This document shows positions 150-30,424 of a stretch of 39,943 nt of DNA, piece after piece. The stretch lies in assembly GCA_028697935.1 (NCBI GenBank), contig JAQVEM010000001.1, positions 2,475 through 42,417 of the forward strand, written 5' to 3'. Made by a program: the position numbers and the translations under genes. Every line of letters starts with the position of its first letter. Position 1 is the stretch's first letter. The stretch is from Actinomycetota bacterium (GTDB taxonomy: Bacteria; Actinomycetota; Humimicrobiia; Humimicrobiales; Humimicrobiaceae). The notes under the pieces are model-generated. The model searched no databases. It was not told the origin of the DNA and saw nothing but the letters and a program-made list of their open reading frames with translations.

Positions 150-240
150 TAACTTGAGCTAATTAATTAATTTAAAAGTTATAAAATTTAGCTAAAAACA
201 TTAATGCATAGTAAAAGAACATATCTTTAATTATAAATTT
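150..240 (+). repeat. AT-rich core module M2, copy 1
   Basis: By eye about 90% identical to the reverse complement of 25285-25376, including the flanking array types. Confidence 0.8.
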
Positions 241-242
241 TT

Positions 243-420
243 ATCTGTGATATCTGTGCTATCTGTGAGAGGTTAACAAAAAATCTGTGATATCTGTGCT
301 ATCTGTGAGAGACCTTATCTGTGTAATCTGTGTAATCTGTGAGAGGTTAACAAAAAATCTGTGATATCTGTGCTATCTGTGAGAGACCTTATCTGTGATA
401 TCTGTGCAATCTGTGAGAGG
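243..420 (+). repeat. Tandem array of five ATCTGTG-dialect triplet units (higher-order period 74 bp, about 2.4 copies)
   Basis: Five units of (t)atctgtg x3 plus agag, with alternating spacers gttaacaaaaa and acct. Odd-numbered units start at 243, 317 and 391, giving a 74-bp period. All units have the same orientation. Confidence 0.9.
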
Positions 421-1656: not shown

Positions 1657-2976
1657 TCAAATAAGGTTGTTAATAACAGGTCTATATTTTCCAGATTTTG
1701 AATTTGGAATATCTTTTTCTTGAATAAACTCAATATTAACATTTCCAATGCGATTTCTTATATTATCTCCAATGATATTCTTTTCATCAGAAGACAATTC
1801 ATCAGCAACATAATGGAATTCAATAGTATCACGAGAATTTTGAATTACTTGAAATTTTCGTAAATCGCGTCTTTCTGCTATATTACTATCAAATATTAAA
1901 TGCCAAAAATAAGCCCAATGCAAATATTCTCCATTTAAACCAATAATATAATCGCATTCTCTACCCAATATTTTTCCAATTAATCGGTGAGCTCTGCCAC
2001 AACTACATTTTTCTGACTTTATGATGAGTTGATCGGCATTATAATATCTGATAAAAGGCATAGAATAATTATTAAGATCCGTACATATCAGATTATTATT
2101 TTCATCAGTCTCAACAATAACATTCTCTTCAGTAATATGCAATCCTTCATGACTACTACATTCAAATGCTATTCCTTCAATTTCTCCACAACCATATTGA
2201 TCATAAGATTCTGAACCTAAAACTTTTTTAAATAATTTTCTATGCTCTTCCAATATGGGCTCAGCAGTTGTCATTATAATTGGTACTTTACATCTAATGC
2301 CTCTTCTTTCCATAATACAGCATAAATTATACAAATATTGAGGATAGCCCCTTATAAGTTTGATATCCTGTTTAATTAAGGTAGATATTATTTTATTCAC
2401 TACATCTTCTTCAGTATCGTAAGGGTTAAAAACAATTGAATTTTCTAGATAATAAATAACCTTATATTTTAAATCGTTAATTTTAGATTTAAGATTATGT
2501 TTATGGATTACATGACCACCCATTAATCTTAATAATTTCTCACCTGTTTTAAATCCCATCCAATCTTCAAATCTTTTATATGCTCCCCATGTATGACTTC
2601 TTGAATTTGCATCATTCCTTTTCATTAATATGTTACCTGTTGTACCTCCAGTCTGACTAATTTTTACACCTTTTATTTTCTTCAAGTTGACAGGAGTGAA
2701 GTCATTATAATTAACTTTAATAATTTCTTTTGTAATAATTGGAAATTCCTTTAATATATCAAGAGATTTAATATCGGATGGAATCATATCTATTTTCTTC
2801 ATATAATTTCTATAATAAGGAACATTTTCATAACAATGATATATTAGACTTCTTAACTTATTAAGTTGAATTTCCTTTAATTCTGACTGAGAAAACCATT
2901 GACTTTCTTTAAATTCTAAATATCTTTTGTATACATTTTTACCTGACAGAATGTCTGCGATTTTTGTAGTATCCAT
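1657..2976 (-). CDS. CapK-like / phenylacetate-CoA ligase (coenzyme F390 synthetase) family adenylate-forming enzyme
   Basis: 439-aa ORF with the adenylation motif SQTGGTTGN. Size and layout are typical of PaaK/CapK-like proteins of capsule loci. It is a paralogue of 3158..4501. Confidence 0.7.
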   Translation of the reverse strand: MDTTKIADILSGKNVYKRYLEFKESQWFSQSELKEIQLNKLRSLIYHCYENVPYYRNYMKKIDMIPSDIKSLDILKEFPIITKEIIKVNYNDFTPVNLKKIKGVKISQTGGTTGNILMKRNDANSRSHTWGAYKRFEDWMGFKTGEKLLRLMGGHVIHKHNLKSKINDLKYKVIYYLENSIVFNPYDTEEDVVNKIISTLIKQDIKLIRGYPQYLYNLCCIMERRGIRCKVPIIMTTAEPILEEHRKLFKKVLGSESYDQYGCGEIEGIAFECSSHEGLHITEENVIVETDENNNLICTDLNNYSMPFIRYYNADQLIIKSEKCSCGRAHRLIGKILGRECDYIIGLNGEYLHWAYFWHLIFDSNIAERRDLRKFQVIQNSRDTIEFHYVADELSSDEKNIIGDNIRNRIGNVNIEFIQEKDIPNSKSGKYRPVINNLI

Positions 2977-3157
2977 AATCTACTCCTTAATTATGTTAAA
3001 TAATAAATTATTATATAGTTACAAGACCTATAAAATAGCTATTTAATGTAGTTAGGCTTAAACGGAATTTAATTTGTTATTGTAATCATTAATTTATGAT
3101 CAATATCGTAATAATACGAAATAAATAGGGGAGGAATTCAACACAATGGGCAAACTA

Positions 3158-4501
3158 TTAGATAGAATTTGAATTAAGAGTAGAGTCAATAAAATATTTT
3201 CTTTTGCCCGATTTTGCAAGGTAGGGAGATTCTGTCTCTTTTATAGTTATTTTAATGTCAGGACCAGCTTGTTTATTTAAGGTACTCAAAATTAAATCAT
3301 CATAAAATGAATTATAATTATTTAATTTAATTAACCAACATACAAGTTCATAATCACTTATCTTTTCTAGGCAATAATACTCTACAGGAATATCTTTAAA
3401 AAGGATAGTAAAACCTGGACCTGTTAATACTCTCCTATTTCCTAAAGTAATTATATCTGAAGTTCTACCTAACACACTATTAATTATTTGTCCATTATAT
3501 TGATAGGATTTATTTATATCATCATCTATGATTATATTGTCACCGACTTGATAATTAATTAAAGGTGTAGCTATATTAAATAAGTCAGTTAACAATGCCT
3601 CCCCTGAATTATTATCACCCTTTTCTTTTAATCTTACAATACTGTTATAACCCACTTCATAAAAACCAGGCACATCAGAAAATGCACATATTCCTCCATC
3701 ATTAGCACCATAACAATCCATAATATTACAATTAAAAGCCTCCTGAATAGTCTTACGATAATTATCAGTCAGTACTTCTGAAGTAGGAAAGCAACATTTA
3801 ATTTTTAAATTTATATTATTTTTTATTACATATTTGGCTAATAGATAAAGTGATGAAGCATAACCATATAAAAAATGAATATGCTTTTTCTTTATCAAGT
3901 CTACATATGATGCACAAGTTTCATCTGACATATTTATACCGTTTACAGCAATTTTCCCCTTTAATCTATAATAAATTATATGCTTAAATGAAGATTTGTG
4001 TTCTACATATAAAGAACTACTTCCTAATGCTAAAAATGGATCTGAATATCTATACCCCATTTTCTCCCAATTATACCAAGTATCAGCATTAATAAAACTC
4101 CAGGAATCATAACTTTGATAATAAGCTGATGGATTTCCAGTTGAACCCCCTGTATGACCTTTTATATGAGGAATATTATTAATCTGTTTAGAGATAAATT
4201 GGGGGAATTTATCCCGAAGCGTATTCTTTGTTAAAATAGGTATATATTTAAGGTCATTAATGTTTTTAATATCTGATGGCACTATATTATTTTCAGCAAA
4301 TAAATTTTTATAATAATCTGTATTTCTATAAGCATATTCAATTAGCTGAGTTAATTTTTTATTCTGCCATTCAGCTATTTCTGATTTACTCCAACAATTC
4401 ATATCTTTTATTTGATTGTAAAATTTTTTTAAAGATGTGTGCATTAATAAATCTGCAAGTGGAATAAATATATTCTTAATAACATACTTATTATCTATCA
4501 T
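3158..4501 (-). CDS. CapK-like / F390-synthetase-family adenylate-forming enzyme (second paralogue)
   Basis: 447-aa ORF with the motif KGHTGGSTGNP and the same architecture as 1657..2976. Its first ~130 codons are duplicated in decayed form at 5891-6278. Confidence 0.7.
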   Translation of the reverse strand: MIDNKYVIKNIFIPLADLLMHTSLKKFYNQIKDMNCWSKSEIAEWQNKKLTQLIEYAYRNTDYYKNLFAENNIVPSDIKNINDLKYIPILTKNTLRDKFPQFISKQINNIPHIKGHTGGSTGNPSAYYQSYDSWSFINADTWYNWEKMGYRYSDPFLALGSSSLYVEHKSSFKHIIYYRLKGKIAVNGINMSDETCASYVDLIKKKHIHFLYGYASSLYLLAKYVIKNNINLKIKCCFPTSEVLTDNYRKTIQEAFNCNIMDCYGANDGGICAFSDVPGFYEVGYNSIVRLKEKGDNNSGEALLTDLFNIATPLINYQVGDNIIIDDDINKSYQYNGQIINSVLGRTSDIITLGNRRVLTGPGFTILFKDIPVEYYCLEKISDYELVCWLIKLNNYNSFYDDLILSTLNKQAGPDIKITIKETESPYLAKSGKRKYFIDSTLNSNSI

Positions 4502-5602: not shown

Positions 5603-5890
5603 TTATAATTTTTTACTTATTAAATTATGATATATTTCTGATAGTTTATAGATTTGTCTATCTAAATTGAATTCTTTTTTTAGATATTCTCTGCTCCTTA
5701 ACCCTAAGTTAATTCTTTTTTCTTTATTATTTATAAGTTCTTCCATTTTATTAGCTATTTGCTCTATGCCTCTTTGCCTAACCAAAATGCCCCTTCTACC
5801 AAAATTTAGTACCTCTGGAATACCAGCATGATCAGTTGCAATACAAGGTAATTGCATAGCTTGTGCCTCCGTTAAAACCTCAGCAATCAC
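5603..5890 (-). pseudogene. C-terminal fragment of a GT-B (GT4-like) glycosyltransferase
   Basis: The 95-aa ORF begins with a GTG in the middle of the C-terminal domain (TEAQAMQLPCIATDHAGIPEV, the EX7E region). The N-terminal domain is absent. Its stop abuts the start of the CapA-like gene as an operon junction would. Confidence 0.75.
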
Positions 5891-9167: not shown

Positions 9168-9802
9168 TTACATAGCACGCATAATATTCTTAGTAACTTC
9201 CTTATAATTGAATTCGTTGTAAACAAGTTCTTTACCCCTCATACCGATAAGTTTTGCCAGCTTCTTTCTATTAACTAGCGTTTCATTTTTCTTCTCTCTT
9301 AAAACCGGTATCTCTTGCAGATCCGGCTCCGGAAAATAACTCGCCGTCTGTGATTCCTCCAGTGCTTCTGAATGTGTCACCAGAAGTGCCTTCGCAAAAT
9401 ATCGGTTCTCGCGCCGAAATTTGAAAGCATAAAATAACCCTACAAAAATAAATAATTCCAGCACAACTGACCCTAAAATCGTTCCCAGCACTATCATCCG
9501 AGAATAATGTAACTGATTGAATATATACATTAGCCCGAAAATAACCACTATCGCATATATATCGCACTTAATTATCTGACTCGCCAACTTAGATGCCTTT
9601 CCCACTTTTTGTAAAGAATACTTCCCACCTAATATACCCACTACTATCCATATCCCGGTAAAGGCAAAGAGAAAACGCCACCACTGAAAATCTGATAGTA
9701 TCCTCCTTGTTCACTCTTTTACCTTTGCCGCAAAAAGAAAGGCAATGACTACAAGAAGGATGTCTAAAAGAAGATAATAAATGGTAGTTTGATTTTTTTC
9801 AT
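9168..9802 (-). pseudogene. Chimeric remnant: disrupted N-terminal membrane domain (polyprenyl-phosphate sugar-phosphate transferase-like) fused to a glycosyltransferase-type C-terminal tail
   Basis: An ATG at 9802 opens MKKIKLPFIIFF and hits a stop. A shifted frame continues LDILLVVIAFLFAAKVKE(stop)TRRILSDFQWWRFLFAFTGIWIVGILGGKY into the 157-aa ORF 9168..9641. That ORF has TM helices and ends in KKLAKLIGMRGKELVYNEFNYKEVTKNIMRAM, a typical GT4 C-terminus. The 9280-9420 segment is locally GC-richer and also carries an overlapping alternative-frame ORF. Confidence 0.5.
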
Positions 9803-9812
9803 ATATTTTTAA

Positions 9813-10555
9813 TCTCACGCAGATTGCGCTGATTCCGCAGATAAGTGCTCTCACAGATAACACAGATTTTAGTTTACCTCTCACAGATTACACGGATAAC
9901 ACAGATAAAAATTTATAATAATAAGATGTTAATATTAGAAGAATTACCGCACGCAGATTGCGCTGATTACGCAGATTTCTTTATTTATGTTAAGAATATT
10001 AAGCACAATCTAAAATTCTGAATTTATCATAGTATATATTATTAAAACCAAAACTGGGCTTAGACATTTCCTTTGCGATTTCAAGAGAGTTAAAATTATA
10101 ATATATTATCAATCATCCATCTGCGTTATCTGCAAAATCTAAGTACTGTATATTTTCATCTCACGCAGATTAAAGAATTTATAATTATAACATTAATAAT
10201 CATCTAACACTTCAAGTATTTATCGCAGTTTATAGTCATTGAAATAAATCATTTGGCTCAGATATTTTTTATTAGATTCCAATATAGTTAAAATTATAAT
10301 GTTTAATAATCATCCATCTGCGTTATCTGCGATATCTGCGTGAAATATAAATAATTATGTTACAGATAACACAGATTATTGTTTTGTAATAAAAAGAGTT
10401 TAAAGTACTTTACTATAAATTAGATCCTCTTACCTTTTTAATTAAGCTATGAATTTTAGGGTAGGTAAAATATAACAAATTTAGATTATTTTGAATTCTT
10501 ATTATAATTAAATCCAATCTGCGGAATCCGCGTTTTTATCTGCTTAATCCGCGGG
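9813..10555. repeat. Composite repeat region: phased 7-mer arrays alternating with core modules M5, M3, M4 and M1
   Basis: Plus-strand order (R = array as CRCAGAT, F = array as ATCTGYG; c = C/G-type, t = T/A-type). R-c 9813-9842, R-t 9848-9867, R-t 9878-9906, M5 9907-9947, R-c 9948-9976, M3 9977-10118, F-c 10119-10140. Then R-c 10159-10170, M4 10171-10315, F-c 10316-10345, R-t 10363-10376, M1 10397-10506, and a degenerate F-c 10517-10555. No ORF of 60 aa or more. Confidence 0.9.
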
Positions 10556-10561
10556 AAAAAA

Positions 10562-11731
10562 TCATACAGGTTCATAGTAAGTATCCGGATCACCTGGATC
10601 ATAAAATTCATTAGTCCAGAACATTGTCAACAACTCCGTATCCCCTATATTAGTAATATTATGTGTAAACCATATCGGCATATCTACATAAGCAGGTTCA
10701 TTCCCATCCAAGATATATTCAATAACTTCAGTAGTTCCATATTTTCGTAATTTAATTGAAGCATTACCTTCAATAACGGCAAAGCGCTCAACTTTTCTAA
10801 GGTGGAAATGATTCCCTCTAATAATTTGTGGTTTAGTGGTTGAATAAGAACTTTGTCCCTTAGACACTGATTTTGCCCATTCTACATAAATACCTCTCTC
10901 ATCTGCATTGATTTTAAACAAACGAGGATAATTATCTAGTGGTATATAGGACCTAAAAGTATTAAAGAGACATAAATCAAAGTAATCACTTAATTCTGGA
11001 AATATGCTATTTTGGTAATACATCTCTTTAAATTCTTGAAGTTTCTCCAAAAGTTCTGAAACTTTATAACTAGCCTGAGATTTTATTTTTAATATCCTGG
11101 GTGGATAATTAAGATTATCTTCTCTAGATTTTCTATTATTTATTGTCTGTGCTAAACTACCATACTTTTCAATTAATTCTATAATAAAATTAACTAATTC
11201 ATTTACATAAATTAAATTCATTTGATTATCTATTTCAATCTTTGGTTCAAGATTATTAACAAGTTGATAGGAAAAGGTAGAAATCACAGAATTGTAGAAA
11301 GGAACTCCAAATGGTCCAAAAACATTAGGTATTATCAATCCTGTAAACATTGCATTGGTTTTATCAGCCCATTTATTTAATAGTTCTCTACCTTCTCGTT
11401 TTGATTTACCATAAGGATTATCAAGAAATTCTTGAAGAGAAGAACTCATAATTACATAAGGTCTTGAAGAAGTTCTTTCAAAAGCAGATATTAACTTTTG
11501 AACCAATTCTATATTCGTTTGATAAAGTACTTCTGGGTTAGAATGTCTATTCATTGCAGCGAGATGAACAATTACATCGCATTCCTTTATGAAAGATTCA
11601 AGCTTACTGGTTTCATTAAAATAATTATCTTCAAAGGGAATAAGAATAAATTTATCCTTAGATAAACTAAGGGTATTAAAGAGGTGAGTACCTATAAATC
11701 CAGATTTGCCTGTAATTCCGATTTTAATCAT
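10562..11731 (-). CDS. fnlB: CapF/FnlB-like bifunctional enzyme (N-terminal SDR domain plus C-terminal cupin domain)
   Basis: 389-aa ORF with an N-terminal Rossmann motif GITGKSGFIGTHL and a C-terminal cupin-like region (GNHFHLRKVERFAVIEGNASIKL). It lies directly downstream of an FnlA/CapE-like gene, as in UDP-L-FucNAc clusters. Confidence 0.65.
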   Translation of the reverse strand: MIKIGITGKSGFIGTHLFNTLSLSKDKFILIPFEDNYFNETSKLESFIKECDVIVHLAAMNRHSNPEVLYQTNIELVQKLISAFERTSSRPYVIMSSSLQEFLDNPYGKSKREGRELLNKWADKTNAMFTGLIIPNVFGPFGVPFYNSVISTFSYQLVNNLEPKIEIDNQMNLIYVNELVNFIIELIEKYGSLAQTINNRKSREDNLNYPPRILKIKSQASYKVSELLEKLQEFKEMYYQNSIFPELSDYFDLCLFNTFRSYIPLDNYPRLFKINADERGIYVEWAKSVSKGQSSYSTTKPQIIRGNHFHLRKVERFAVIEGNASIKLRKYGTTEVIEYILDGNEPAYVDMPIWFTHNITNIGDTELLTMFWTNEFYDPGDPDTYYEPV

Positions 11732-18750: not shown

Positions 18751-18770
18751 AATTGTGCAAATTGGTGGAC
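18751..18770 (+). repeat. Inverted partner of the 18304-18321 motif (aattgtgcaaattggtggac)
   Basis: Its reverse complement gtccaccaatttgcacaa matches gtccaccaatttacacaa (18304-18321) at 17 of 18 positions. It lies between the GxxExxY start and the stop of the upstream gene. Confidence 0.85.
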
Positions 18771-19747
18771 TATAAATTATATATTCCCGGTTTATATTTG
18801 GCTAAGTTTCGTGGATCGCTGAACCACTCTACTGTTTTTTCAAGACCTTCTCTTAAAGGATATTGAGGTTCATAACCAGTTAGTTCTTTTATTTTGGTGT
18901 TATCACATCTTAATCTGAAGACTTCAGAATGTTCGGGTCTTAACCTTTGTTCTTCAACTATAAGATTTGCATCACTGTGCATTATATCTTTAATCAATGC
19001 AAATAATTCTTTTATAGAAATCTCATCATTTGAACCGATATTTACGGTTTCACCAATTGCTTTATCGCATTTAGCTAATAAAATAAAGCCATTACAAATA
19101 TCTTTCACATAATTGAAATCACGAGTTGGAGTAGTATCACCAATCTTAATTTCTTTATTTCCACTAGCAATTTGAGTGATAATTGTCGGAATCACCGCCC
19201 TGGCAGATTGACGAGGACCATAAGTATTAAATGGACGAACTATAGTAACAGGAAGTTGATAAGCATAATAAAAGCTCGTAGCAATCGCATCAGCACCAAT
19301 TTTACTGGCACTATATGGTGATTGAGGTTGCAATGGATGTTTTTCATCTATGGGAACATATTGTGCGGTACCATAAACTTCGCTGGTAGAAGTTACTAAT
19401 ATTCTTTTGACCTTACAATCTTTAGCTGCTTGACAAATATTCAAAGTGCCTTTGATATTAGTATCTATAAAGCTTTGTGGAGCAATATATGAATAGGGAA
19501 TAGCAATCAATGCAGCTAAGTGGAATATAACATCTATCCCCTTACAAATTTCTCTACAATATGCTGGATCTCTTACATCTCCACAAACAATCTCTAAATT
19601 AGAAGTTTGTTGAATATCTTCCAGCCATCCCCAGTAATTAAAAGAATTATATTGAGCTAAAGCTCTAACATCATATCCTTCCGCTAATAAAGATTCTGTT
19701 AGATGTGACCCAATAAATCCATCAGCTCCCGTAACTAAAACTTTCAT
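18770..19747 (-). CDS. NAD-dependent sugar-nucleotide dehydratase/epimerase (extended SDR, LegB-like 4,6-dehydratase type)
   Basis: Rossmann motif [12 protein letters not shown], then [11 protein letters not shown], and a catalytic YSASK. I use the ATG at 19747, which is preceded by AAGGAAG. The tracked GTG extension (VDRRKED) reads into the repeat motif. Confidence 0.75.
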   Translation of the reverse strand: MKVLVTGADGFIGSHLTESLLAEGYDVRALAQYNSFNYWGWLEDIQQTSNLEIVCGDVRDPAYCREICKGIDVIFHLAALIAIPYSYIAPQSFIDTNIKGTLNICQAAKDCKVKRILVTSTSEVYGTAQYVPIDEKHPLQPQSPYSASKIGADAIATSFYYAYQLPVTIVRPFNTYGPRQSARAVIPTIITQIASGNKEIKIGDTTPTRDFNYVKDICNGFILLAKCDKAIGETVNIGSNDEISIKELFALIKDIMHSDANLIVEEQRLRPEHSEVFRLRCDNTKIKELTGYEPQYPLREGLEKTVEWFSDPRNLAKYKPGIYNL

Positions 19748-19762
19748 ATCTTCCTTTCTTCT

Positions 19763-20073
19763 GTCCACGAATTTTCACAAATTAGCACGAATTATTATAA
19801 TTATCTAAATTTATTATAATCCAATTTTGCTATTTAATTAATTCAACTTTGCCAAATCTCTCAAAACCCTTATTCCCCTTGACTTACATTGAGGACAGGT
19901 AACGACGAGTATGTCGTTTATTCTGGAAAGTATCCATCCGCTCTCTGTCCTTACCCTCTCAACATTCTCAATACATGTAAAGCTTCAGCACGCTCCGACT
20001 ACACAAATTTTTCAATCCTCTAATCCCCTTTCAACCTTCTCTATTTCGTGTTAATTTGTGCAAATTCGTGGAC
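19763..20073. repeat. 311-bp non-coding element bounded by ~31-bp terminal inverted repeats of the CACGAATT dialect (MITE-like)
   Basis: The left end is GTCCACGAATTTTCACAAATTAGCACGAATT (19763-19793). The reverse complement of the right end (20041-20073) is GTCCACGAATTTGCACAAATTAACACGAAATAG, with about 28 of 31 identical. The 247-bp core has no ORF and contains a GC-richer hairpin segment. Confidence 0.7.
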
Positions 20074-20336: not shown

Positions 20337-21152
20337 CTATTTGGTATTATTAAACATAGTTTTAATTTGTTTTTGGATATCCGCTTTCAACTGCAATCTA
20401 TTTTGTTCCAGCTCATATTCCCCTGCATCTATTAAACTTTCTAAATAACTATTTATTTTATTAATTTCTTCTTTCATATCAATTTCTTTAATTACTTCTT
20501 CATATGTATCTTTATATTTTCTAAAATCCCTATTTATTATTACCATTTTGGAACCAAGTCTAAAATGTTCAGATAAAATTAATTTCCCTTTTTCTAACCT
20601 TGAGACACCACCAAAACCATATTTTATCTTTTTATGGGCAATTTTTTGGCACAAATATTCAATAATACTACCTATTAATGGTTCATATAAAAAATCCAAT
20701 CCCATCCCTATAGATAAATCGTTTAATCCAATATGAACAGCATCAATTCCATCTACATCAAGAATATCATCTACCCTTACTAGTGCTTGTGGAGTTTCAA
20801 GCAATAGGTATTTCATTGCTCTTTCACCAACAAGCTCAACAAAAATCTCCACTTCCTTCACTGTTTTAAACATAGGTAACATTATAATGTCAGCTTTTCT
20901 AGCAATTGATTCTTCTATTTCATTTTCTGTGCCTTCATAAATCGGATTAATTCTGACTAAACATTTTGATTTAGTAAGACATTTTTTTATTTTATCAATA
21001 TCTTCAATACTATGAGCAGAAATAACAGTATTTAACCCATTTTGTCTTTCTTTTTTTCCAATAATTTCAAGATCGACCATAATATCATCTATGCCACAAT
21101 ATTCAAAATATTGTGCTAATTTCACCTCGTTTGTTATAGATATATATTCCAT
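20337..21152 (-). CDS. HpcH/HpaI aldolase / citrate-lyase-beta-like family protein
   Basis: 271-aa ORF with LLLETPQALVRVDDILDVDGIDAVHIGLNDLSIGMGL, resembling the conserved E...D-x-(I/V)-x-IG-x-(N/D)-DL block of this TIM-barrel family. Confidence 0.6.
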   Translation of the reverse strand: MEYISITNEVKLAQYFEYCGIDDIMVDLEIIGKKERQNGLNTVISAHSIEDIDKIKKCLTKSKCLVRINPIYEGTENEIEESIARKADIIMLPMFKTVKEVEIFVELVGERAMKYLLLETPQALVRVDDILDVDGIDAVHIGLNDLSIGMGLDFLYEPLIGSIIEYLCQKIAHKKIKYGFGGVSRLEKGKLILSEHFRLGSKMVIINRDFRKYKDTYEEVIKEIDMKEEINKINSYLESLIDAGEYELEQNRLQLKADIQKQIKTMFNNTK

Positions 21153-21164
21153 ATTTAATTACCT

Positions 21165-22088
21165 CTATATTTTTATTAACCAATCATTATATTTAGGTTT
21201 TATTCCTCTAACTATTTCAAAATACAACTCTTTCAATGCTTTGGTAATACTCCCAACTTCGCCATTATTAACTAGATATTGATCTACACTTAATATGGGA
21301 AGAATTTCCACTGAAGTTCCAACAAAAAATATTTCGTCTGCAATATATAATTCAGTTCTATCAATCTCTCTTTCTTCTACTTCAATATCAAGCTCATATT
21401 TAGCAATTTTAATTAATGTATCCCTTGTAATACTTTCTAAGATAGAAGCTGTGATAGGTGGTGTAATTAATTTATGATTTCTTAGACAGAATAAACAGGC
21501 ACCTGGTCCTTCGGCAACTTTTCCATCTCTATTCAGAAAGATAGAAGAATCATAACCGTTCATTGTTGCTTCCAATAAGGCAAATCTACTATTTATATAA
21601 TTAGCTCCTGCCTTAATCCTGGGTGGAATATCAAATTCGCTAATTCTTTCCCAAGAAGAAATGCAACAGTTTATACCAGTTTTGTCTGAATATACTCTTC
21701 CTTTGGGATAAGGATATATTACAATTCCTATAGGGCTTAAAGAGCTCCAACTACCTTCTTCATCCAAAAACATACATATTTTCACATATAAATCTTCATT
21801 ATATTTATTTGCTTTAATAACATTTCTTAAATTATATATTATATATTCTTTACTAATCTTGTTGTCAATTTGAAATTTTATTAATTTTGATGATTGGAAC
21901 AATCTATTTATATGATCATTTAACCTGAAAGCATATAAGGAATTTTCCTCTTCATTATTATAACATCTAATTCCTTCAAAAACATTTATTCCATATTGCG
22001 CACTGGTATTCATAATATTAATTTTAGCTTCCTTATAAGGAATTATATCTCCTTTAAACCAAATTAACCTATTATTTGTGTTATTCAT
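21165..22088 (-). CDS. Class IV (branched-chain / D-amino-acid type) PLP aminotransferase
   Basis: 307-aa ORF. The N-terminus FKGDIIPYKEAKINIMNTSAQYGINVFEGIRCY and later GKVAEGPGACLFCLRNHKLITPP are typical of fold-type IV aminotransferases. Confidence 0.7.
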   Translation of the reverse strand: MNNTNNRLIWFKGDIIPYKEAKINIMNTSAQYGINVFEGIRCYNNEEENSLYAFRLNDHINRLFQSSKLIKFQIDNKISKEYIIYNLRNVIKANKYNEDLYVKICMFLDEEGSWSSLSPIGIVIYPYPKGRVYSDKTGINCCISSWERISEFDIPPRIKAGANYINSRFALLEATMNGYDSSIFLNRDGKVAEGPGACLFCLRNHKLITPPITASILESITRDTLIKIAKYELDIEVEEREIDRTELYIADEIFFVGTSVEILPILSVDQYLVNNGEVGSITKALKELYFEIVRGIKPKYNDWLIKI

Positions 22089-22102
22089 ATTTATACTCCT
22101 AT

Positions 22103-23338
22103 TTATTCAAAATTATAGGTTTGGAAAATGTATTCAAATGTTTCAGCCTCTTTCAAAATATCAAATCCATCATTTCTTAAAGCAATGATGGGAACATTAG
22201 GAAAAATAAAAGGTGGTTTAAACACAATAGAATAGGACCCCACATTGTCAAAAACAAGATAATCACCTATACAAAGCTCTCCAGAATAATTTTTATAAAG
22301 ATAATCATCTTCTATGCAAGTATATCCCGATATGTCAATAGCATCATAATAATTTCTTTTTGTTTTATTTGTATCTATACTATATACAGATAGAGGCAAA
22401 TTTAGTTTAGTTGTTAACCGATGATAATTAATCTTTGATCCAGAGGTAATTGCAATATGTTTATCTTTAATAGTTTTAATCTCAATTACTTTACATACAT
22501 ATTGCATCGTGTTGGCTACTAAAGCTGTGCCTGGTTCTAATATTAATATTGGTTTATAATAACTTTGTGAAAAGTTATCCTGAAATTTTGTTGCTATTAT
22601 ATTGGCATAATCTTGATAATCAGCAACAGTATAGCCAAGTTGTTGTTTTATTTTGTCGTCTAATTTACCGCCTAATCCACCTCCTAAATCTATATAAAAT
22701 GGCTCATTATAATCAACAACCCTTTCATATATATCAAGCATTCTATTAACTTTTTCTTCATATACTTTTAAATCTCTATAAGGGAAATGACAATGTATCA
22801 TATTAAATCTGATATTTTTTATATTTTTTAACTCTTCTACTATTTGGAAAAATGACTCTTTGCTAGTATCAAATCCAAATCTGGAAAGTGGTGTATCATT
22901 TAACTCAAAATTACACCTCACTCCTAAATTAAAAACTTTACCCGGATATTTACTCGCAATCTTTTTTAGTAGAATAAATTCTGAATAATTATCTAAATTA
23001 ACTATACTCCCTTTAGTTAAATACTTTTCTAAAGATTTCTCTGGTTTATAAGGTCCATTTACAATGATATTTTCAGGATTAACTCCTACTTTAATAGCCA
23101 AATCATATTCCATTTCTGACACAACCTCTGCATATCCTCCCTCGTTATTAATTATCTTACATAATGCTGGAATATAATTAGTTTTATATGAATATGCGAT
23201 TTTTATCTTAGGGTAAATCAAAGTAAAAGCATCATAAAATTCATAAAAATTTGTTCTAAATTTTTCTATATCTATAATGTACCAGGAATCCCCTATTAAT
23301 TTTTCAATTTTATTTAATAAATTATAGTTTAATTTCAT
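22103..23338 (-). CDS. PLP-dependent decarboxylase, Orn/DAP/Arg decarboxylase family (fold type III)
   Basis: 411-aa ORF with the PLP-lysine block IAYSYKTNY, the glycine loop DLGGGLGG, EPGTALVA, and C-terminal CIEDD. Confidence 0.75.
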   Translation of the reverse strand: MKLNYNLLNKIEKLIGDSWYIIDIEKFRTNFYEFYDAFTLIYPKIKIAYSYKTNYIPALCKIINNEGGYAEVVSEMEYDLAIKVGVNPENIIVNGPYKPEKSLEKYLTKGSIVNLDNYSEFILLKKIASKYPGKVFNLGVRCNFELNDTPLSRFGFDTSKESFFQIVEELKNIKNIRFNMIHCHFPYRDLKVYEEKVNRMLDIYERVVDYNEPFYIDLGGGLGGKLDDKIKQQLGYTVADYQDYANIIATKFQDNFSQSYYKPILILEPGTALVANTMQYVCKVIEIKTIKDKHIAITSGSKINYHRLTTKLNLPLSVYSIDTNKTKRNYYDAIDISGYTCIEDDYLYKNYSGELCIGDYLVFDNVGSYSIVFKPPFIFPNVPIIALRNDGFDILKEAETFEYIFQTYNFE

Positions 23339-23405
23339 ATATTATTTTTACTTCTATTATTAGGCTGATTAAAAGAGCAGTATTTTATAATTATTATTGT
23401 GTAAA

Positions 23406-23489
23406 AGATGTGACCCAATAAATCCATCGGCTCCCGTGACTAAAACTTTCATATCTTCGTTTCTTCTGTCCACGAATTTTCACAAATTT
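23406..23489 (-). pseudogene. Third copy of the SDR gene 5' end (about 15 codons plus 37 bp of upstream leader including the GTCCACGAATTTTCACAAATT motif)
   Basis: About 81 bp match 19703-19783 with 3 mismatches. Two are synonymous, and one is in the Shine-Dalgarno region (aaggaag to aacgaag). Confidence 0.85.
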
Positions 23490-23501
23490 CCTAATTAAAC
23501 T

Positions 23502-23528
23502 TTCTCAACCTTCTCAACCTTTACAATA
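23502..23528 (+). repeat. Short phased array, TTCTCAACC dialect (period 9)
   Basis: The sequence is ttctcaacc ttctcaacc tttacaata. Related tctcaac/tctcaat pairs lie at 19957-19972, and a tttcaacct lies at 20029-20037. Confidence 0.6.
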
Positions 23529-23565
23529 ACATTCAAATACTATGAACATTTAAATAATCTCTTAA

Positions 23566-25110
23566 TTAAGGTGCTACCGGTGTTGAAGAATGTCGTATTT
23601 GAAGTTTACGAATCCCTTGAATTATATAGCGCTTAATAGATTGACGCTCATAAAGGTCCATACCCAGATAATATATTGAAATAAAAAGAATTATTTCAGA
23701 GACAAGACTGATTAGAATAAAACGTAACCATCCATAAGAAAAGAAATTTTTAATTATAAAAAACGGAACAACGGATAAACTTACAAGTATTATTTTAAAA
23801 GTAGAATTTTTTAAAAATTCCATAACATCATAATTTAATATAGCTTTTAAAAGAATTAGATCTGTTATAAAGGTCAATGTTGCAGTAAGAAGATAAATAT
23901 AGCCAATAATATAAGGAGGATAACCTGCTTTAAATGCAAAATATGCTAAAGGTAGACCTAAAAGAGTAATGCTACTATATGTTATTTTAAATAGAGCTAT
24001 ATTTCCAGAGGCGTGAATGAAGGGACCAATGCCGTATTGACTAGCAAAAATAACAGATTTTAAAAGCATAGCTTGAACAAATATTGTAGTATACTCGGGA
24101 ACTTCTTTTAACCAAATATTAAGGATGAAATCCGTTTCTAAAAGGATGGGAAGCATAGGGATTGCCATTAAAAAGAAAGAATATTTAGATGCTAAAATTA
24201 CTAAATTACTGGCTCGTTTGTGTTCACCAGCGCTATAACTTTTTGTTATCTGGGGAACAACTGCTTGCCCTAAACTCTGAGCAAAAGATCTCACTATAGA
24301 ATTAACTTGATTAGCTATACCGAAACTGGCATTTAATATGGTTCCAAAAAAACGATTAATAATAATAGCTGCACCTTGATGTTCTCCAACTACGGCTGCA
24401 ACTTCAATTGAATTCAAACCTGTAAAACCCAGCATTTCTTTATACTTTTTCCAGTCTTTAGAAAAATTCCATTTAACCTCATTAAAATATGTTCTGAAAC
24501 AATAAATTATGTAAAGTATAAGTCTTAAAGCATGTATTATAGTTAGAAATATTACATATAATCTTAAATGATTATAAGGAAGATAAATTAGAGCTATAGA
24601 TAATAATAAAATCAGTATCTTATTTAATATTTCAATGGGAACGGTTATTGAAAATTTCTCTTTGGCTACCAATAAACCTTGAAATGGGGTCTCAATAATA
24701 ATGCAGATAGTAATGAGTGTGGAAAAAAGGAAAGTAAAGACTGCGTCATTCAATTTGCCTTCAGGAACATTAAGATAATTATAAATATAATATAATCCAA
24801 CGGTTAAGGAGAGAAAAAGAAATATTATACATAAAAGTAAGTGTATGGATAAACTTATATTAAATATATTATTTACATTACCATCAGGTTTCCCTTCTTC
24901 AAAGGCAATAAACCTATAAGTTGTTGTTATCATTATAGTATTTACAAATGCCATTAAAGAAACCACACCACCAACAACATTATATAGCCCATAATCAGAT
25001 ACCCCCAAAGCCATAAGTAAAAATCTGGAGGTAAAAAAACCAGCTACCATTGACACTACAAGACGAATGTAAAGATAAATACTGTTCTTTATTATAAGTT
25101 TATTGGACAT
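23566..25110 (-). CDS. wzx: Oligosaccharide flippase (Wzx-type, MOP superfamily polysaccharide biosynthesis protein)
   Basis: 514-aa ORF with about 12-14 hydrophobic segments. The N-terminus IKNSIYLYIRLVVSMVAGFFTSRFLLMALGVSDYGLYNVVGGVV is typical of Wzx/RfbX-like proteins. Confidence 0.75.
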   Translation of the reverse strand: MSNKLIIKNSIYLYIRLVVSMVAGFFTSRFLLMALGVSDYGLYNVVGGVVSLMAFVNTIMITTTYRFIAFEEGKPDGNVNNIFNISLSIHLLLCIIFLFLSLTVGLYYIYNYLNVPEGKLNDAVFTFLFSTLITICIIIETPFQGLLVAKEKFSITVPIEILNKILILLLSIALIYLPYNHLRLYVIFLTIIHALRLILYIIYCFRTYFNEVKWNFSKDWKKYKEMLGFTGLNSIEVAAVVGEHQGAAIIINRFFGTILNASFGIANQVNSIVRSFAQSLGQAVVPQITKSYSAGEHKRASNLVILASKYSFFLMAIPMLPILLETDFILNIWLKEVPEYTTIFVQAMLLKSVIFASQYGIGPFIHASGNIALFKITYSSITLLGLPLAYFAFKAGYPPYIIGYIYLLTATLTFITDLILLKAILNYDVMEFLKNSTFKIILVSLSVVPFFIIKNFFSYGWLRFILISLVSEIILFISIYYLGMDLYERQSIKRYIIQGIRKLQIRHSSTPVAP

Positions 25111-25126
25111 AAGTTCTTCTTATATA

Positions 25127-26120
25127 CTCTCACAGATTGCACAGATGACACAGATAAGGTCTCTCACAGATTACACAGATAACACAGATAAAAATTTATA
25201 ATAATAGGTTGTAAACATTAGCAGGATTACCTCACGCAGATTACGCTGATTTCGCAGATAAGTTCTCTCACAGATAGCACAGATATAATTTATAATTAAA
25301 AATATGTTCATTTACAATGCATTAATGTTTGTAGCTAAATTTTATAGCTTTTAAATTGATCAATTAGCTCAATTTATCTCACGCAGATTACGCTGATTCC
25401 GCAGATATGGTCTCTCACAGATTACACAGATATCACAGATTATAATTATAATAAGATTGTTAAAACTGTATCAATTAATTAAAATTGCGTCTTATCGGCA
25501 TATATTAACATTCCCCTTGAATTAATTTTTAAAATCAGAATAAGTTCTTAGAGCATTACCATTCTCTATTCTAAAAAACTAATAAGGGCTTTTTTAAATA
25601 ACCGTTAGTATAAACCATGTTTCTATTCCAGATAAAATTATCATATCCATCAATTTCATTATAAGTGTTTTTAAAGTAATTCTGAAGTTAATTCATTATG
25701 ACGGTAAGAAATAGCACAATTTACATTATACATTAATTCTTTTAATTTCACTATAAATCCTTATCTGTGATATCTGTGATATCTGTGTTATCTGTGTTAT
25801 CTGTAACATAATTTTTTATATTTCACGCAGATATCGCAGATAACGCAGATGGATGATTATAAATACATTATAATTTTAACTATATTGAATCTATTAAAAA
25901 ATATCTGAGCCAAATGATTTATTTCAATGACTATAAACTGCGATAAATACTTGAAGTGTTAGATGATTATTAATGTTATAATTATAAATTCTTTAATCTG
26001 CGGAATCAGCGTAATCTGCGTGCAGTAATTCTTCTAATATTAACATCTTATTATTATAAATTTATATCTGTGTTATCTGTGCTATCTGTGAGAGACCTCA
26101 TCTGCGATATCTGCGTGAAA
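25127..26120. repeat. 1-kb ORF-free composite repeat region between wzx start and the next gene's stop
   Basis: Left half, all R orientation: R-t 25127-25155, R-t 25161-25189, M5-like 25190-25229, R-c 25230-25259, R-t 25265-25284, inverted M2 25285-25376, R-c 25377-25406, R-t 25411-25440. A unique 322-bp centre spans 25441-25762. Right half: F-t x5 25763-25805, R-c 25821-25850, inverted M4 25851-25994, F-c 25996-26023, inverted M5 about 26024-26065, F-t 26066-26096, F-c 26100-26120. Confidence 0.9.
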
Positions 26121-26128
26121 CATTAAAC

Positions 26129-27058
26129 TTATTTATAAAAATCAATTGTACGAGCTAGTCCTTCTTTAAAATCCACTTTCACTTCATAATCTAAGATTTC
26201 TTTGGCTTTGTCTATACTTGCCCAAGAATGTTTAACATCACCTGGTCTTTCAGGTGCAAACTGAGGTTCTATGTTCTTTCCCAGGATATCATTTATCATC
26301 TTTACTAAATCCAGAAGAGTATAGGATTCACCACAGGCAATATTTATTACTTCACCTGGAGCTTTTTCTGCGGTACAGGCTAAAATATTAGCCAGAACAT
26401 TGTTTTCAACATAGGTAAAATCACGCGATTGAGTGCCATCACCACAGATTATTGGTTCTTTATCTTCACTTATAAGTTTAATAAATTTAGGAATAACAGC
26501 ACTATATTGAGAGGTAGGATCTTGATTAGGACCAAATACATTGAAATAGCGAAGTGATGCGGTCTCCAACCCATATAAATTATAGTATATCTGACAATAT
26601 CTTTCCTGAGCATATTTGGTTAAAGCATAAGGAGACATTGGATTAACTGGCATAGTTTCTATCTTAGGAAGTGTTTCACTATTTCCATAAATAGAAGAAG
26701 AGGAAGCACAGATTACTCTTTTTACTCTAAATTCTTTTGCCGCCTCCAGGATATTAAGAGCACCCAGGATATTCACATCATTGGTTGTAATAGGGTCGTT
26801 AATAGAACGAGGCACCGAAGGAAGTGCTCCTTGATGCAGGATAAAATCAACTCCTTTAACGGCAGCTCTAACAATATGAAAACTTCTTAAATCCCCTTCT
26901 ATAACTGTTAAATGTGGATTGGTTATCAAAGGAAGAATATTATCACGTTTACCGGTGGCAAAATTATCCAACACCCGAACTTCCTGACCCTGCTTTAATA
27001 ACTCTTTCACTATATTGGAACCGATAAACCCTGCTCCACCTGTCACTAAATATTTCAT
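26129..27058 (-). CDS. NAD-dependent sugar-nucleotide 4-epimerase (extended SDR, WbpP/TviC/GalE-like)
   Basis: 309-aa ORF with VTGGAGFIGSN, VLDNFATGKRDNI, catalytic YALTK, and RYFNVFGPNQDP. Confidence 0.8.
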   Translation of the reverse strand: MKYLVTGGAGFIGSNIVKELLKQGQEVRVLDNFATGKRDNILPLITNPHLTVIEGDLRSFHIVRAAVKGVDFILHQGALPSVPRSINDPITTNDVNILGALNILEAAKEFRVKRVICASSSSIYGNSETLPKIETMPVNPMSPYALTKYAQERYCQIYYNLYGLETASLRYFNVFGPNQDPTSQYSAVIPKFIKLISEDKEPIICGDGTQSRDFTYVENNVLANILACTAEKAPGEVINIACGESYTLLDLVKMINDILGKNIEPQFAPERPGDVKHSWASIDKAKEILDYEVKVDFKEGLARTIDFYK

Positions 27059-27078
27059 TATTTATTCCTCAATTTATA

Positions 27079-27501
27079 CCTCACGCAGATTACGCTGATT
27101 ACGCAGATTTCTTTATTTATAATTTGAGTGTCAAACATAATCTAAAGTTCTGAATTTATCTATGAATATTGCCAATAATATCAATTAATAGTTGGTTTGG
27201 AGATTTCTTTAACGAATTCAAGAGAGCTAAAATTATAAAGCATTATCATTCATTTATCTGCGTTATCTGCGATATCTAAGCACAGTATATTGTCATCTCA
27301 CGCAGATTACGCTGATTTCGCAGATTAAAGAATTTATAATAAGAATTATAATCATAATCTAAAATCCCAAAGTATTTTCTTATAATTTTGTAACTATACT
27401 CAATTATATGGCCTAAAGCTTTTTAAAGATTTCACTACAGTTAGATTAAATTATTAAACATAAAAACATCCATCTGCGTTATCTGCGCTATCTGCGTGAA
27501 A
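27079..27501. repeat. Composite repeat region (R-c, M3 copy 2, F-c, R-c, diverged M4-like core, F-c)
   Basis: R-c 27079-27107, M3 27108-27255 (alignable to 9977-10118), F-c 27256-27277, R-c 27296-27325, a core 27326-27471 whose ends resemble M4, and F-c 27472-27501 (atctgcgttatctgcgctatctgcgtgaaa). Confidence 0.85.
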
Positions 27502-27511
27502 CATAACTAAT

Positions 27512-27907
27512 TTATTGAAGATCTGGATGATGAATATCATTTGCTACTCTTATTATATTGTCTTTGATTGAATCAGTATTGAAATTGATCAGAAAACCTA
27601 AAGGTTTCTTTGCTATTTTTAGATAAGTTATCAATTGCTTATAATGAACTGGTAATAATGTATCAACAGATTTCAATTCGAGGATTACTTGATCATTTAT
27701 TAAAAAATCAAGTCTGTACTGAATTCCAAGGTTAACACCTTTGTATAGAACTTCTATGGGAACCTGATTTTCTACTTTCAGACCTCTATTATTTAATTCA
27801 ATTAAAAGAGCTTGCGCATAAATATTTTCAAGCAAACCCGGACCTAATATATTGTAAACCTCAAAAACTGAACCTCTGATTTGATAACTTATATCATTCA
27901 AATTCAT
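27512..27907 (-). CDS. GxxExxY protein (PD-(D/E)XK nuclease-fold), copy 2
   Basis: 131-aa ORF with the motif GPGLLENIYAQ and a downstream LDFLINDQVILELKS (D...ELK). Confidence 0.85.
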   Translation of the reverse strand: MNLNDISYQIRGSVFEVYNILGPGLLENIYAQALLIELNNRGLKVENQVPIEVLYKGVNLGIQYRLDFLINDQVILELKSVDTLLPVHYKQLITYLKIAKKPLGFLINFNTDSIKDNIIRVANDIHHPDLQ

Positions 27908-27915
27908 TGTATTTT

Positions 27916-28225
27916 TCTCACGCTGATTACGATAATTCTATTTTTCATTTTATTTCACGCAGATTACGCTGATTTCGCTGATTTTTTTACTTATAATAAG
28001 AATATTCAAAATAATCTAAATTTGTTATATTTTACCTACCCTAAAATTAATAGATTAATTAAAAAGGTAAGAGGAGCTAATTTATAGTAAAGTACTTTAA
28101 ACTCTTTTTATTACAAAACATTAATCTGTGATATCTGTGCAATCTGTGAGAGGTGAAAAAAATCTGTGTTATCTGTGCAATCTGTGAGAGACCTTATCTG
28201 CGTTATCTGCGAAATCTGCGTGAGA
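27916..28225. repeat. Composite repeat region (degenerate R, R-c, inverted M1, two F-t units, F-c)
   Basis: Degenerate tctcacgctgattacgat 27916-27933, R-c 27953-27982 (tttcacgcagattacgctgatttcgctgat), inverted M1 27991-28103, F-t 28122-28153, F-t 28162-28193, F-c 28194-28225. The tracked plus-strand ORF 27881..28087 simply reads through these repeats. Confidence 0.9.
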
Positions 28226-29548: not shown

Positions 29549-29917
29549 TTAATGGGCAATTCTCTGGAATTCTAATTTTGCCACATTGCCAAAGTTTAAG
29601 ATATATCCTACTTTGAGCCCTGTTGCACTTAGATAATTTATTATTTGTGCGCAATGCATTGAATGAATTATATTACAAGCTTTGAGCTCCAGTATAATTT
29701 TACCTTCTACAATAATATCAGCAATATAATCTCCAACAATTTGATCTCTATAAAAAACTGGTATAGGAACCTGATAAACATAACTAATACCTTGATATTT
29801 AAATTCTACACATAAAGCTCGTTCATATACTTTTCCCAAATATCCGGCACCCAGCTCTTTGTGAACAGCAATTGCACAACCAATAATTCTATCACTCAGC
29901 TCCTTCTCATATATCAT
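29549..29917 (-). CDS. GxxExxY-family protein (PD-(D/E)XK fold), copy 3, with the signature Glu replaced by Gly
   Basis: 122-aa ORF that aligns with copies 1 and 2. Its motif reads GAGYLGKVYE (G-x-x-G-x-x-Y), while the D...ELK block (ADIIVEGKIILELKA) is retained. Confidence 0.8.
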   Translation of the reverse strand: MIYEKELSDRIIGCAIAVHKELGAGYLGKVYERALCVEFKYQGISYVYQVPIPVFYRDQIVGDYIADIIVEGKIILELKACNIIHSMHCAQIINYLSATGLKVGYILNFGNVAKLEFQRIAH

Positions 29918-29950
29918 AAATTTTGGGCTTTCCCTTTCTTATTTTAAAAA

Positions 29951-30424
29951 TTATATAACCTTTTCGGTGTCTTCGGTGCTATCGGTGGCTAATATTTTTG
30001 TATTGTAAATTACCTTTCGGTGCTCTAGGTGTTTTCGGTGGCTAATAAAAATAAACAGCAGAGTCAATATTGCTCCAAAGAGATTCGCTATCATATCCAT
30101 AGGATTAAAGGTTCTATAAGGCAAGAGATATTGTAAACATTCACTGATTATAGCAGAACCGCCTACAATTAGTATATATTTCAAAACAGATTTATGATTA
30201 AAAATTGGATTGCCTTGCCTTTCCGCTATCAAATATAAAGGGATAAAGACAAGAAAAGATACAAAATGAATAAGATAATCCAATCTAAATTCAAATATAG
30301 ATTTGTGAATGATACGATTTAAATCATCTCCCAAGGGAATAACATTCATTGCTAAAACTATAATCAGCCATCCCCAAAATAACCATCTTGCCCCATTTGC
30401 CATCCTTTTATCTTGTATCATCAT
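29951..30424 (-). CDS. VanZ-like family membrane protein
   Basis: 157-aa ORF with 4 TM-like segments. It has DYLIHFVSFLVF and SECLQYLLPYRTFNPMDMIANLFGAI, resembling VanZ-family blocks. The last ~30 codons are encoded by the TTCGGTG arrays. Confidence 0.6.
   Translation of the reverse strand: MMIQDKRMANGARWLFWGWLIIVLAMNVIPLGDDLNRIIHKSIFEFRLDYLIHFVSFLVFIPLYLIAERQGNPIFNHKSVLKYILIVGGSAIISECLQYLLPYRTFNPMDMIANLFGAILTLLFIFISHRKHLEHRKVIYNTKILATDSTEDTEKVI
29961..30043 (+). repeat. Two phased triplet arrays, TTCGGTG dialect, separated by a 22-bp spacer
   Basis: 7-mers ttcggtg / ttcggtg / atcggtg start at 29963, 29972 and 29981. 7-mers ttcggtg / ctaggtg / ttcggtg start at 30016, 30025 and 30034. The period is exactly 9, and each triplet ends in GGCTAAT. 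Confidence 0.9.

Follow-up and report, generated by a model that had tools for sequence, protein, structure and literature searches.

The 1,018-bp gap upstream of wzx is probably a compound cluster of an interspersed Cloacimonadota repeat family at a rearrangement junction of a glycan locus

The stretch of DNA that we analyzed (the window, 39,943 nucleotides of contig JAQVEM010000001.1 in a metagenome-assembled genome (MAG) that is nominally assigned to the Actinomycetota) carries a glycan locus in which the gene for a wzx-type oligosaccharide flippase, whose homologues are named O-antigen export proteins, is separated by a repeat-bearing spacer from the NAD-dependent epimerase/dehydratase gene upstream of it (Table 1). 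An earlier note on this DNA, made by a model from the letters alone, had described the spacer as an unusual 1-kb noncoding gap in an otherwise tightly packed cluster. The gap is borne out: its sole open reading frame (ORF) of at least 40 aa is a 46-aa frame (25171-25311) that sits on the repeat arrays and has no Pfam match; the spacer contains no credible ORF. The tight packing is not: the cluster contains eight more gaps (921, 634, 570, 564, 504, 504, 454, and 438 bp), and the same arrays also occur in four other gaps of the window, among them those of 921, 454, and 324 bp. Rather than standing out in a compact operon, the spacer is simply the longest of a number of gaps.

We located the arrays with Tandem Repeats Finder and a pattern search, and we define an array strictly as at least two units CRC[ATG]GAT at a 9-bp period; with this definition, the spacer contains 11 arrays of the 9-bp phased unit CRCWGAT+NN. 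All six arrays to the left of the center (starting at 25131, 25165, 25235, 25269, 25382, and 25416) read CRCAGAT on the plus strand; the earlier note had counted eight, that is, the uniform orientation stands and the count does not. To the right of the center, four of the five arrays (25763, with five units, 25996, 26066, and 26100) read the complement, ATCTGYG, and the lone exception (25826-25850) reads CRCAGAT on the plus strand; the five of six previously reported are recovered if 25763-25805 is split in two. For a fixed split point, a fit of at least 10 of the 11 arrays to this mirror pattern has a chance probability of 0.012. The large imperfect palindrome around a unique center that had been described is also confirmed, both by the outer inverted arms (25142-25259/25996-26113; 118 nt, 86%) and by the inner ones (25416-25440/25772-25796; 25 nt, 96%, around 331 bp). 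The 118-nt inverted repeat takes in leader sequence, not arrays alone; therefore, the two sides of the spacer are copies of the same type of element or an inverted duplication.

The unit from which the arrays are built is a conserved 7-mer, CRCWGAT, followed by two variable bases, and a triplet of units forms an arm. Positions 8 and 9 of the unit vary, no change is seen at positions 3, 5, 6, and 7, and position 2, either A or G (31 each), defines two dialects, CA and CG. The CG arrays occur in an A form, with CGCTGAT as the middle unit (10 of 10) and T-rich spacers, and in a B form with A-rich spacers. The CA arrays are found as tandem units of 34-40 nt, with as many as five in succession (243-415), and also in composite arms, where they take the inner position and the CG array the outermost. 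On the core side of every arm is an AT-rich leader, TAAAGAATTTATAAT, around TTATAAT. The abundance of these repeats is far above expectation: CRCAGATNNCRCWGAT has 61 matches in the window with at most one mismatch (vs 0.05 expected), and in the window as a whole 96 units make up 34 arrays, which are grouped into five intergenic clusters.

Arms and leaders are also assembled into a gene-less unit (U; 197-216 bp) in which a core of ~145 nt separates an A arm from an inverted B arm. Seven copies of U align, with invariant arms and cores that are 50-79% identical; between the copy in the spacer and those at 9946-10142, 27078-27279, and 27295-27504, identities are 72-79%. The closest similarity is between 25790-26002 and, in reverse, 10164-10376, a twin ~15 kb away (98% identity; 5 differences in 213 bp); the twin stretch also spans two CA units and a 13-nt linker and ends after the first unit of the A arm. 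As judged from the sequences, this similarity points to a recent duplication or gene conversion. The gap in which the twin is located (9641-10562) is built in the same nested way as the spacer.

When parsed into modules (Table 1), the spacer contains one whole U unit and at least seven other arm-plus-leader ends; in the parse outward from wzx, three such ends are rightward and three leftward, with the U unit between them. M1 begins 17 nt upstream of the wzx start codon; the A array of M3 is a perfect 27-nt complement of 25996-26022; the five-unit CA array at 25763 carries a leader; and the right terminal arm (26059-26116), which also has a leader, pairs with both M1 and M2.

Table 1. Coordinates of the features in and around the wzx spacer (positions in the window).
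Feature	Positions	Strand	Remarks
ORF-free spacer, compound near-palindromic repeat cluster	25111-26128	.	1,018 bp; between wzx and the epimerase gene
M1	25127-25196	+	two CA arrays (25131-25155, 25165-25189), then AT-rich leader ATTTATAAT
M2	25231-25300	+	A-type CG array (25235-25259, middle unit CGCTGAT), 9-nt linker, 2-unit CA array (25269-25284), leader
M3	25378-25447	+	A-type CG array (25382-25406), CA array (25416-25440), leader
Unique 322-bp center	25441-25762	.	single occurrence in the assembly
Best sigma-70-like match facing wzx (candidate)	25445-25474	-	TTGATA, 18 nt, TATAAT; 11/12
Five-unit CA array	25763-25805	-	points left to the center; inverted partner of 25416-25440
Complete gene-less unit U	25815-26030	-	A arm 25996-26020, ~145-nt core, B arm 25826-25850
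Right terminal composite arm	26059-26116	-	CA array (26066-26090) and 2-unit B-type CG array (26100-26115)
wzx-type oligosaccharide flippase gene	23566-25110	-	downstream of the spacer; homologues with PF01943 and PF01554
NAD-dependent epimerase/dehydratase gene	26129-27058	-	upstream of the spacer
GxxExxY (PDDEXK_3) nuclease gene	27512-27907	-	between two gene-less units
Second compound array cluster	9818-10553	.	in the 921-bp gap; holds the U twin
Array clusters of the window	120-415; 9818-10553; spacer; 27084-27496; 27958-28220

The distribution of the repeats points to both their lineage and the probable host of the contig. The exact triplet is present in 19 of 91 Cloacimonadota genomes, with up to 77 per genome (0 for a reversed control pattern), and in a closed genome (G246) triplets are spread across the 2,246,820-bp chromosome; in a sampled 52 kb of this genome all arrays are intergenic, and it also contains array-filled gaps of 0.6-1.9 kb. 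The triplet pattern is found in none of 200 genomes of the nominal phylum of the MAG, same-genus and same-family genomes included, and PF13366 is found in none of 40 genomes of its nominal family. For the RNB ribonuclease that the contig encodes, 10 same-genus genomes yielded no match, and proteins labeled Candidatus Cloacimonas and Syntrophosphaera are 71-75% identical to it; the contig (C65) has the lowest G+C among the 60 contigs of the MAG of at least 8 kb as well as a low tetranucleotide correlation; and a Cloacimonadota genome (G256) encodes a wzx that is 79% identical to that in the window. Because the arrays are common in Cloacimonadota and absent from the 200 genomes of the nominal phylum, the contig and a strain-variant fragment (C116) are probably Cloacimonadota DNA that was misbinned into a MAG of another phylum; the contig should not be read as part of that MAG. 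Of the 39 arrays in the MAG, 36 are on this contig, but we rejected the inference that the arrays are confined to the glycan locus; given the probable misbinning, the count says nothing about such confinement. The size of the contig, 42 kb of 1,558 kb, about matches the stated contamination of the MAG (2.67%). C116 (1-2240) is a second strain variant of the window at 27.5-29.9 kb: its 148-aa, 266-aa, and 27512-like nuclease products are 92-98% identical in protein, and the two pieces of its gene that resembles 29549-29989 are 60-95% identical; these two pieces of a GxxExxY gene overlap (1879-2079 and 2051-2224), which suggests a frameshift.

Similar architectures are seen elsewhere. The closed genome contains, between ordinary genes, five arrays of the same orientation at a 95-109-bp period (L058:8891-9304) and three at a 104-bp period (L061:2129-2361); thus, tandem arm-plus-leader units such as M1-M3 in the spacer are a recurrent architecture. 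A contig classed as a provirus (L037; IMG/VR UViG_3300026311_000741, 2917-3486) has five tandem A-type arrays in an ORF-poor stretch and no further similarity to the window.

The order of genes around wzx differs between the window and the closest genome, G256. In the glycan locus of that genome (C3, 111-153 kb), wzx is the first gene; it is preceded by 1.46 kb of noncoding DNA and a divergent gene and is directly followed by orthologs of 18770-19768 and of the GxxExxY gene at 18362, and the orthologs of the epimerase gene (85%) and of the nuclease gene at 27512 are located 37 kb away, at the other end of the locus. Since wzx heads this locus and the epimerase gene is so distant, the spacer is a rearrangement junction. 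An independent metagenome contig (L011; wzx 92%) conserves at 98% the first 92 bp upstream of wzx, M1 included, and the center is ~96% identical in strain variants from two other runs, similar to the flanking genes; thus, the spacer is stable within the species and marks the join of two modules. In more distant relatives the upstream gene is 35 bp from wzx and there is no spacer (L013; wzx 66%), or a 427-bp upstream gap is without arrays (L015; wzx 64%).

These loci have other notable features. The G256 locus (C3:111000-153300; L066-L068) contains eight GxxExxY genes in ~40 kb and two duplicated biosynthesis genes, and almost all of its gene junctions carry phased arrays, which belong to five or more dialects (CACAGAT, CTCAGTG, TTCGGTG, GTTGAGA/TCTCAAC, and a 10-bp ATTCGTG). 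In the window, the similarity of a 95-aa ORF (5603-5890) to a group-1 glycosyltransferase is limited to the C-terminal third of the latter; this ORF is probably a gene fragment that was generated by rearrangement. The gap downstream of wzx (23338-23566) contains a fragment of 25 codons from the start of the epimerase gene at 18770-19768 (also in L011:1930-2004), and in both G256 and L012 wzx is directly followed by an epimerase gene of this type; therefore, the intervening region with three amino-acid-type genes (20337-23338) looks like an insertion bounded by a duplicated junction.

The repeats are also associated with GxxExxY (PDDEXK_3) nuclease genes, three of which are found in the window. 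The closed genome G246 encodes three orthologs (77-79%) of the nuclease at 27512-27907, each starting 17 nt after a CRCAGAT arm, and its tandem nuclease cassette closes with an inverted A-type arm; in G261 and G256, nuclease orthologs are enclosed by convergent CA arms located 12-73 nt from the ORF. The U units and the G246 cassette have a common arm and a leader of ~20 nt (88% over 43-49 nt). No activity of GxxExxY proteins is known from the literature. A further GxxExxY gene in the window (29549-29989) has an ortholog in G256 (C3:117897-118333; 91% protein identity) that is flanked by CTCAGTG arrays, and the gene in the window is flanked by TTCGGTG arrays; therefore, the repeat dialect can drift by two bases with the protein barely changed, a point relevant to any claim that dialect and protein go together. 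We found no paper on the motif, on GxxExxY cassettes, or on Cloacimonas repeats, and the repeat family appears to be undescribed. New here are its placement in the Cloacimonadota, its genome-wide distribution, the array-rich genomes without the nuclease gene (vide infra), the synteny break, and the parse of the wzx spacer.

Our explanation, which we consider probable, is that the spacer is a compound cluster of this interspersed Cloacimonadota repeat family, similar to a bacterial interspersed mosaic element (BIME) or to nested miniature inverted-repeat transposable elements (MITEs), at a rearrangement junction of the glycan locus. Directly observed are the anatomy of the spacer, the membership of its parts in the family, a recent duplication (of one unit), the break in synteny, and the spread of the arrays across the lineage. 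In full-length members of the family, convergent arms enclose a small gene for a GxxExxY (PD-(D/E)XK) nuclease, and the gene-less U members (~200 bp) retain the arms and leader; with rightward ends on the left and leftward ends on the right, the copies in the spacer produce a mirror image around the 322-bp remnant. The mirror layout is better explained as the by-product of nested or adjacent inverted copies of a dispersed repeat family, and nothing shows the spacer to be a special, purpose-built genetic switch. The units may multiply or exchange by array-directed recombination or mobilization, possibly via the GxxExxY nuclease. A read-through transcript of the minus strand would be predicted to fold into a stem of ~130 bp with an inner stem of 25 bp; such a stem would likely be an RNase III substrate or a barrier to transcription or translation, and wzx would probably be served by a promoter within the gap.

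Several observations weigh against this explanation. The explanation does not account for the 322-bp center: it contains no ORF of at least 40 aa; neither tblastn with the three GxxExxY and two neighboring proteins nor blastx against a set of 4,372 ORFs (from the MAG and from related loci) detected a coding remnant in the center or the rest of the spacer below E = 0.3; and neither the spacer nor the center has a match among 40 relatives of the MAG and five Cloacimonadota genomes that bear arrays. No target-site duplication is evident at the unit ends in our alignments, and we found no insertion polymorphism or empty site, so the case for mobility is made from copy number and from the single twin at 98%, which gene conversion would produce equally well. 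The U core has no detectable homology to the nuclease gene; the nuclease gene in the window lies between units, not within one; and arrays are present in 9 of 11 genomes with a nuclease ortholog vs 10 of 80, a difference that is confounded by shared ancestry. PF13366 has no match in three array-rich genomes (G252, G318, and G272, with 51, 72, and 18 triplets, respectively); therefore, arrays persist without the nuclease gene, unless these MAGs miss the relevant loci. Finally, the order of the blocks rests on one assembly.

A bolder version, which we consider unlikely as a whole, assigns the arrays and GxxExxY nucleases to an integrase-free cassette-shuffling system for Cloacimonadota surface-glycan loci, with the arrays as the sites of excision, inversion, and rejoining; the wzx spacer would then be both a scar and a promoter-bearing head, in which the arm-plus-leader ends drive wzx and the giant hairpin insulates it from upstream read-through.

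The earlier note had also asserted that the spacer must contain the signals that serve wzx and the genes downstream, an assertion that is not borne out by what the sequence shows. Sigma-70-like sites occur at chance level (11 vs 9.9 ± 3.8); no intrinsic terminator was found in the spacer; a search of Rfam returned no family, only miRNA-like chance matches (E 0.12-0.84) far under the gathering scores; the center has no fold signal (z = -0.5 and +0.2); and, as described above, L013 has no spacer. A wzx promoter inside the gap is plausible; in G256, wzx heads the locus behind 1.46 kb of noncoding DNA.

One alternative is that the giant minus-strand hairpin is an exapted RNA element, selected either because RNase III separates the messages or because the stop codon of the epimerase gene is brought to the start of wzx; we think this quite unlikely. 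The structure prediction that had been suggested for the whole spacer on the minus strand does give a much stronger fold than shuffled sequences: -318 kcal/mol (-297 for the plus strand) vs -197 ± 8 for 25 dinucleotide shuffles, with z about -15. The base of the stem in the minimum-energy fold pairs 26125-26132 with 25112-25119, including part of the wzx start codon, and the intervening sequences of 23S rRNA provide a precedent for excision from long hairpins (PMC4990558). The read evidence available to us consists of short assembled contigs only; in one RNA library, their depth (67-113 for the center, 14 for the U core, and 6-9 for wzx) is a weak hint of discontinuous RNA, but contig depth cannot rank expression. 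Inverted DNA repeats fold in this way regardless of any role in RNA. The plus strand folds nearly as well. We rejected the strand preference of the large hairpin (better by 21 kcal/mol on the minus strand) as evidence, since control regions are biased alike. The U units show no covariation, with invariant arms and a single compensatory pair among 34 predicted pairs.

We regard as improbable a second alternative, in which the spacer is a dedicated operator whose phased 7-mers bind a regulator or nucleoid protein and whose palindrome was kept by selection because it permits looping or cooperative binding. Drift is seen in the 2-nt spacers and in the cores but not in the 7-mers, a pattern that fits sequence-specific recognition of each unit; also, the CGCTGAT middle unit found in every A arm generates a conserved T-T mismatch in the A/B hairpin, which argues against selection for pairing only. 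However, the arrays occur genome-wide beside many unrelated genes and also serve as the arms of nuclease-gene cassettes, the window contains no regulator gene, and arrays are missing from the gap immediately upstream of wzx in the relatives whose wzx is 64-66% identical.

Very unlikely, in our judgment, is an inverton, that is, a switch in which 25416-25440 and 25772-25796 are recombination sites and a promoter in the center is turned toward or away from wzx and the genes downstream. The inner inverted repeat and the segment that it flanks have suitable dimensions (25 nt at 96%, around 331 bp, within 100-500 bp), two sigma-70-like sites inside the center face wzx (25474-25445 and 25686-25658), wzx heads the locus in G256, and one RNA-library contig joins 25440 to 25778 on opposite strands (shorter side 46 nt). 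Against this, arrays of the same kind number in the dozens per genome, are found in every orientation and in tandem, and thus do not form a dedicated pair of sites; the ORFs of the 42-kb contig include no recombinase gene (one long ORF at the head of the contig was judged by eye); and promoter-like sites are not enriched. The opposite-strand joint is absent among the joints listed for three DNA runs, and an identical contig of 383 bp from a source-like run has the orientation of the reference; RNA libraries commonly contain artifactual fold-back chimeras at inverted repeats. We consider an inverton less likely than either a promoter or a processing site in the gap.

That the order and orientation of the blocks are an assembly artifact, a misjoin of repeat-bounded metagenome fragments, is highly improbable. 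In its favor, no independent contig spans the whole gap and public contigs break at arrays, the contig is probably misbinned, and there are several weak alternative joints (e.g., 25440 to 25818, which skips 377, with a shorter side of 24-29 nt, in three DNA runs). Against it, the arrays (25-43 nt) are below ordinary read size, identical sub-contigs (X3) cover 25378-25760 and 25831-26020, L011 independently supports the order of wzx, M1, and M2 at 98%, and the closed genome G246 has similar compound gaps. In X2, a contig for 25834-26022 differs by one letter and one gap. Opposite-strand joints were also seen between 25441 and 26098 and between 25204 and 26094 (33-44 nt); like 25440 to 25818, these joints are essentially internal to arrays and may stem from other loci or organisms, and we draw no conclusion from them. 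Likewise, the depth spikes at the arrays reflect only the abundance of arrays in wastewater metagenomes.

If the spacer is a compound repeat cluster as we propose, the gap exemplifies a lineage-specific repeat family that remodels a surface-polysaccharide locus: the repeats and the small nuclease genes that they enclose are located at almost every junction, and the module order of the two closest genomes differs exactly there. The large orphan GxxExxY/PDDEXK_3 family would gain a testable substrate, the CRCWGAT triplet arms, and a mechanism would be suggested for the diversification of glycan loci in uncultured bacteria of anaerobic digesters. For annotation, long palindromes in these genomes that look regulatory should be treated with caution, as they are usually repeat clusters.

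We compared the gap with several known systems. The repetitive extragenic palindromic (REP) sequences of Proteobacteria, with their BIME and REPIN (REP doublet) arrangements and associated RAYTs (REP-associated tyrosine transposases), are similar in that short, conserved, intergenic repeats, often within operons, are present in tens to hundreds of copies per genome and form clusters of alternating orientation that give long hairpins; also, a small nuclease-type gene is itself flanked by repeats. They differ in that a REP is a palindrome of 20-40 nt, whereas the unit here is three direct 9-bp repeats with palindromy only between separate arms, and in that the associated gene here encodes a PD-(D/E)XK GxxExxY protein, not a Y1 HUH transposase. 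No Y1_Tnp gene is located on the contig; we rejected a RAYT as the cognate enzyme, since the Y1_Tnp genes in the array-rich genomes G246 and G261 are not flanked by arrays (the nearest listed arrays are 0.5-4 kb or more away). One of these, an IS200-like Y1 transposase gene (L057:6568-6993; G246:C1:802567-802992) with an in-frame TAG reported inside the match, shares an array- and cassette-rich 16 kb with tandem GxxExxY copies, the nearest arrays being 2-4 kb away.

The MITEs, such as the Correia elements of Neisseria, are similar in being noncoding units of ~200 bp with inverted ends that are dispersed between genes; their ends are common to a gene-carrying relative, as the ends of the U units are to the GxxExxY cassette of G246. 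Both MITEs and the BOX elements of Streptococcus pneumoniae are cotranscribed and fold into hairpins, as the units here would, and sometimes nest, and the modular order of an A arm, 0-5 CA arrays, a core, and a B arm resembles boxA-(boxB)n-boxC. No target-site duplication is seen here and no known transposase is associated, unlike MITEs; unlike both MITEs and BOX elements, the arms here are phased arrays with a conserved internal mismatch.

The invertible promoters of Bacteroides capsular polysaccharide loci and of fimS also have inverted repeats around a segment of a few hundred bp, which in the former precedes a polysaccharide operon; the repeats here are multicopy and dispersed, with no recombinase nearby and no opposite-strand joint listed for the DNA runs. 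The attC arrays of integrons share imperfect inverted-repeat sites at nearly every junction of a unidirectional array, gene content that varies between relatives, and conserved mismatches in the hairpins; in contrast to integrons, the ORFs of the window include no match to an integrase family, neither attI nor Pc was found, and the sites are often multiple, tandem, or nested. The intervening sequences of 23S rRNA in Coxiella and Leptospira are selfish elements with inverted ends and a small ORF (S23p) in a transcribed region, and their stem is an RNase III target (PMC4990558); the repeats here lie between protein-coding genes and enclose a different ORF family, and any excision from RNA would be putative. 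The family thus departs from REP/RAYT in unit structure and enzyme, shares single traits with BOX elements, rRNA intervening sequences, and attC arrays, and agrees in most respects with MITE-like elements; by analogy, the gap would work most like a BIME or a nested-MITE cluster.

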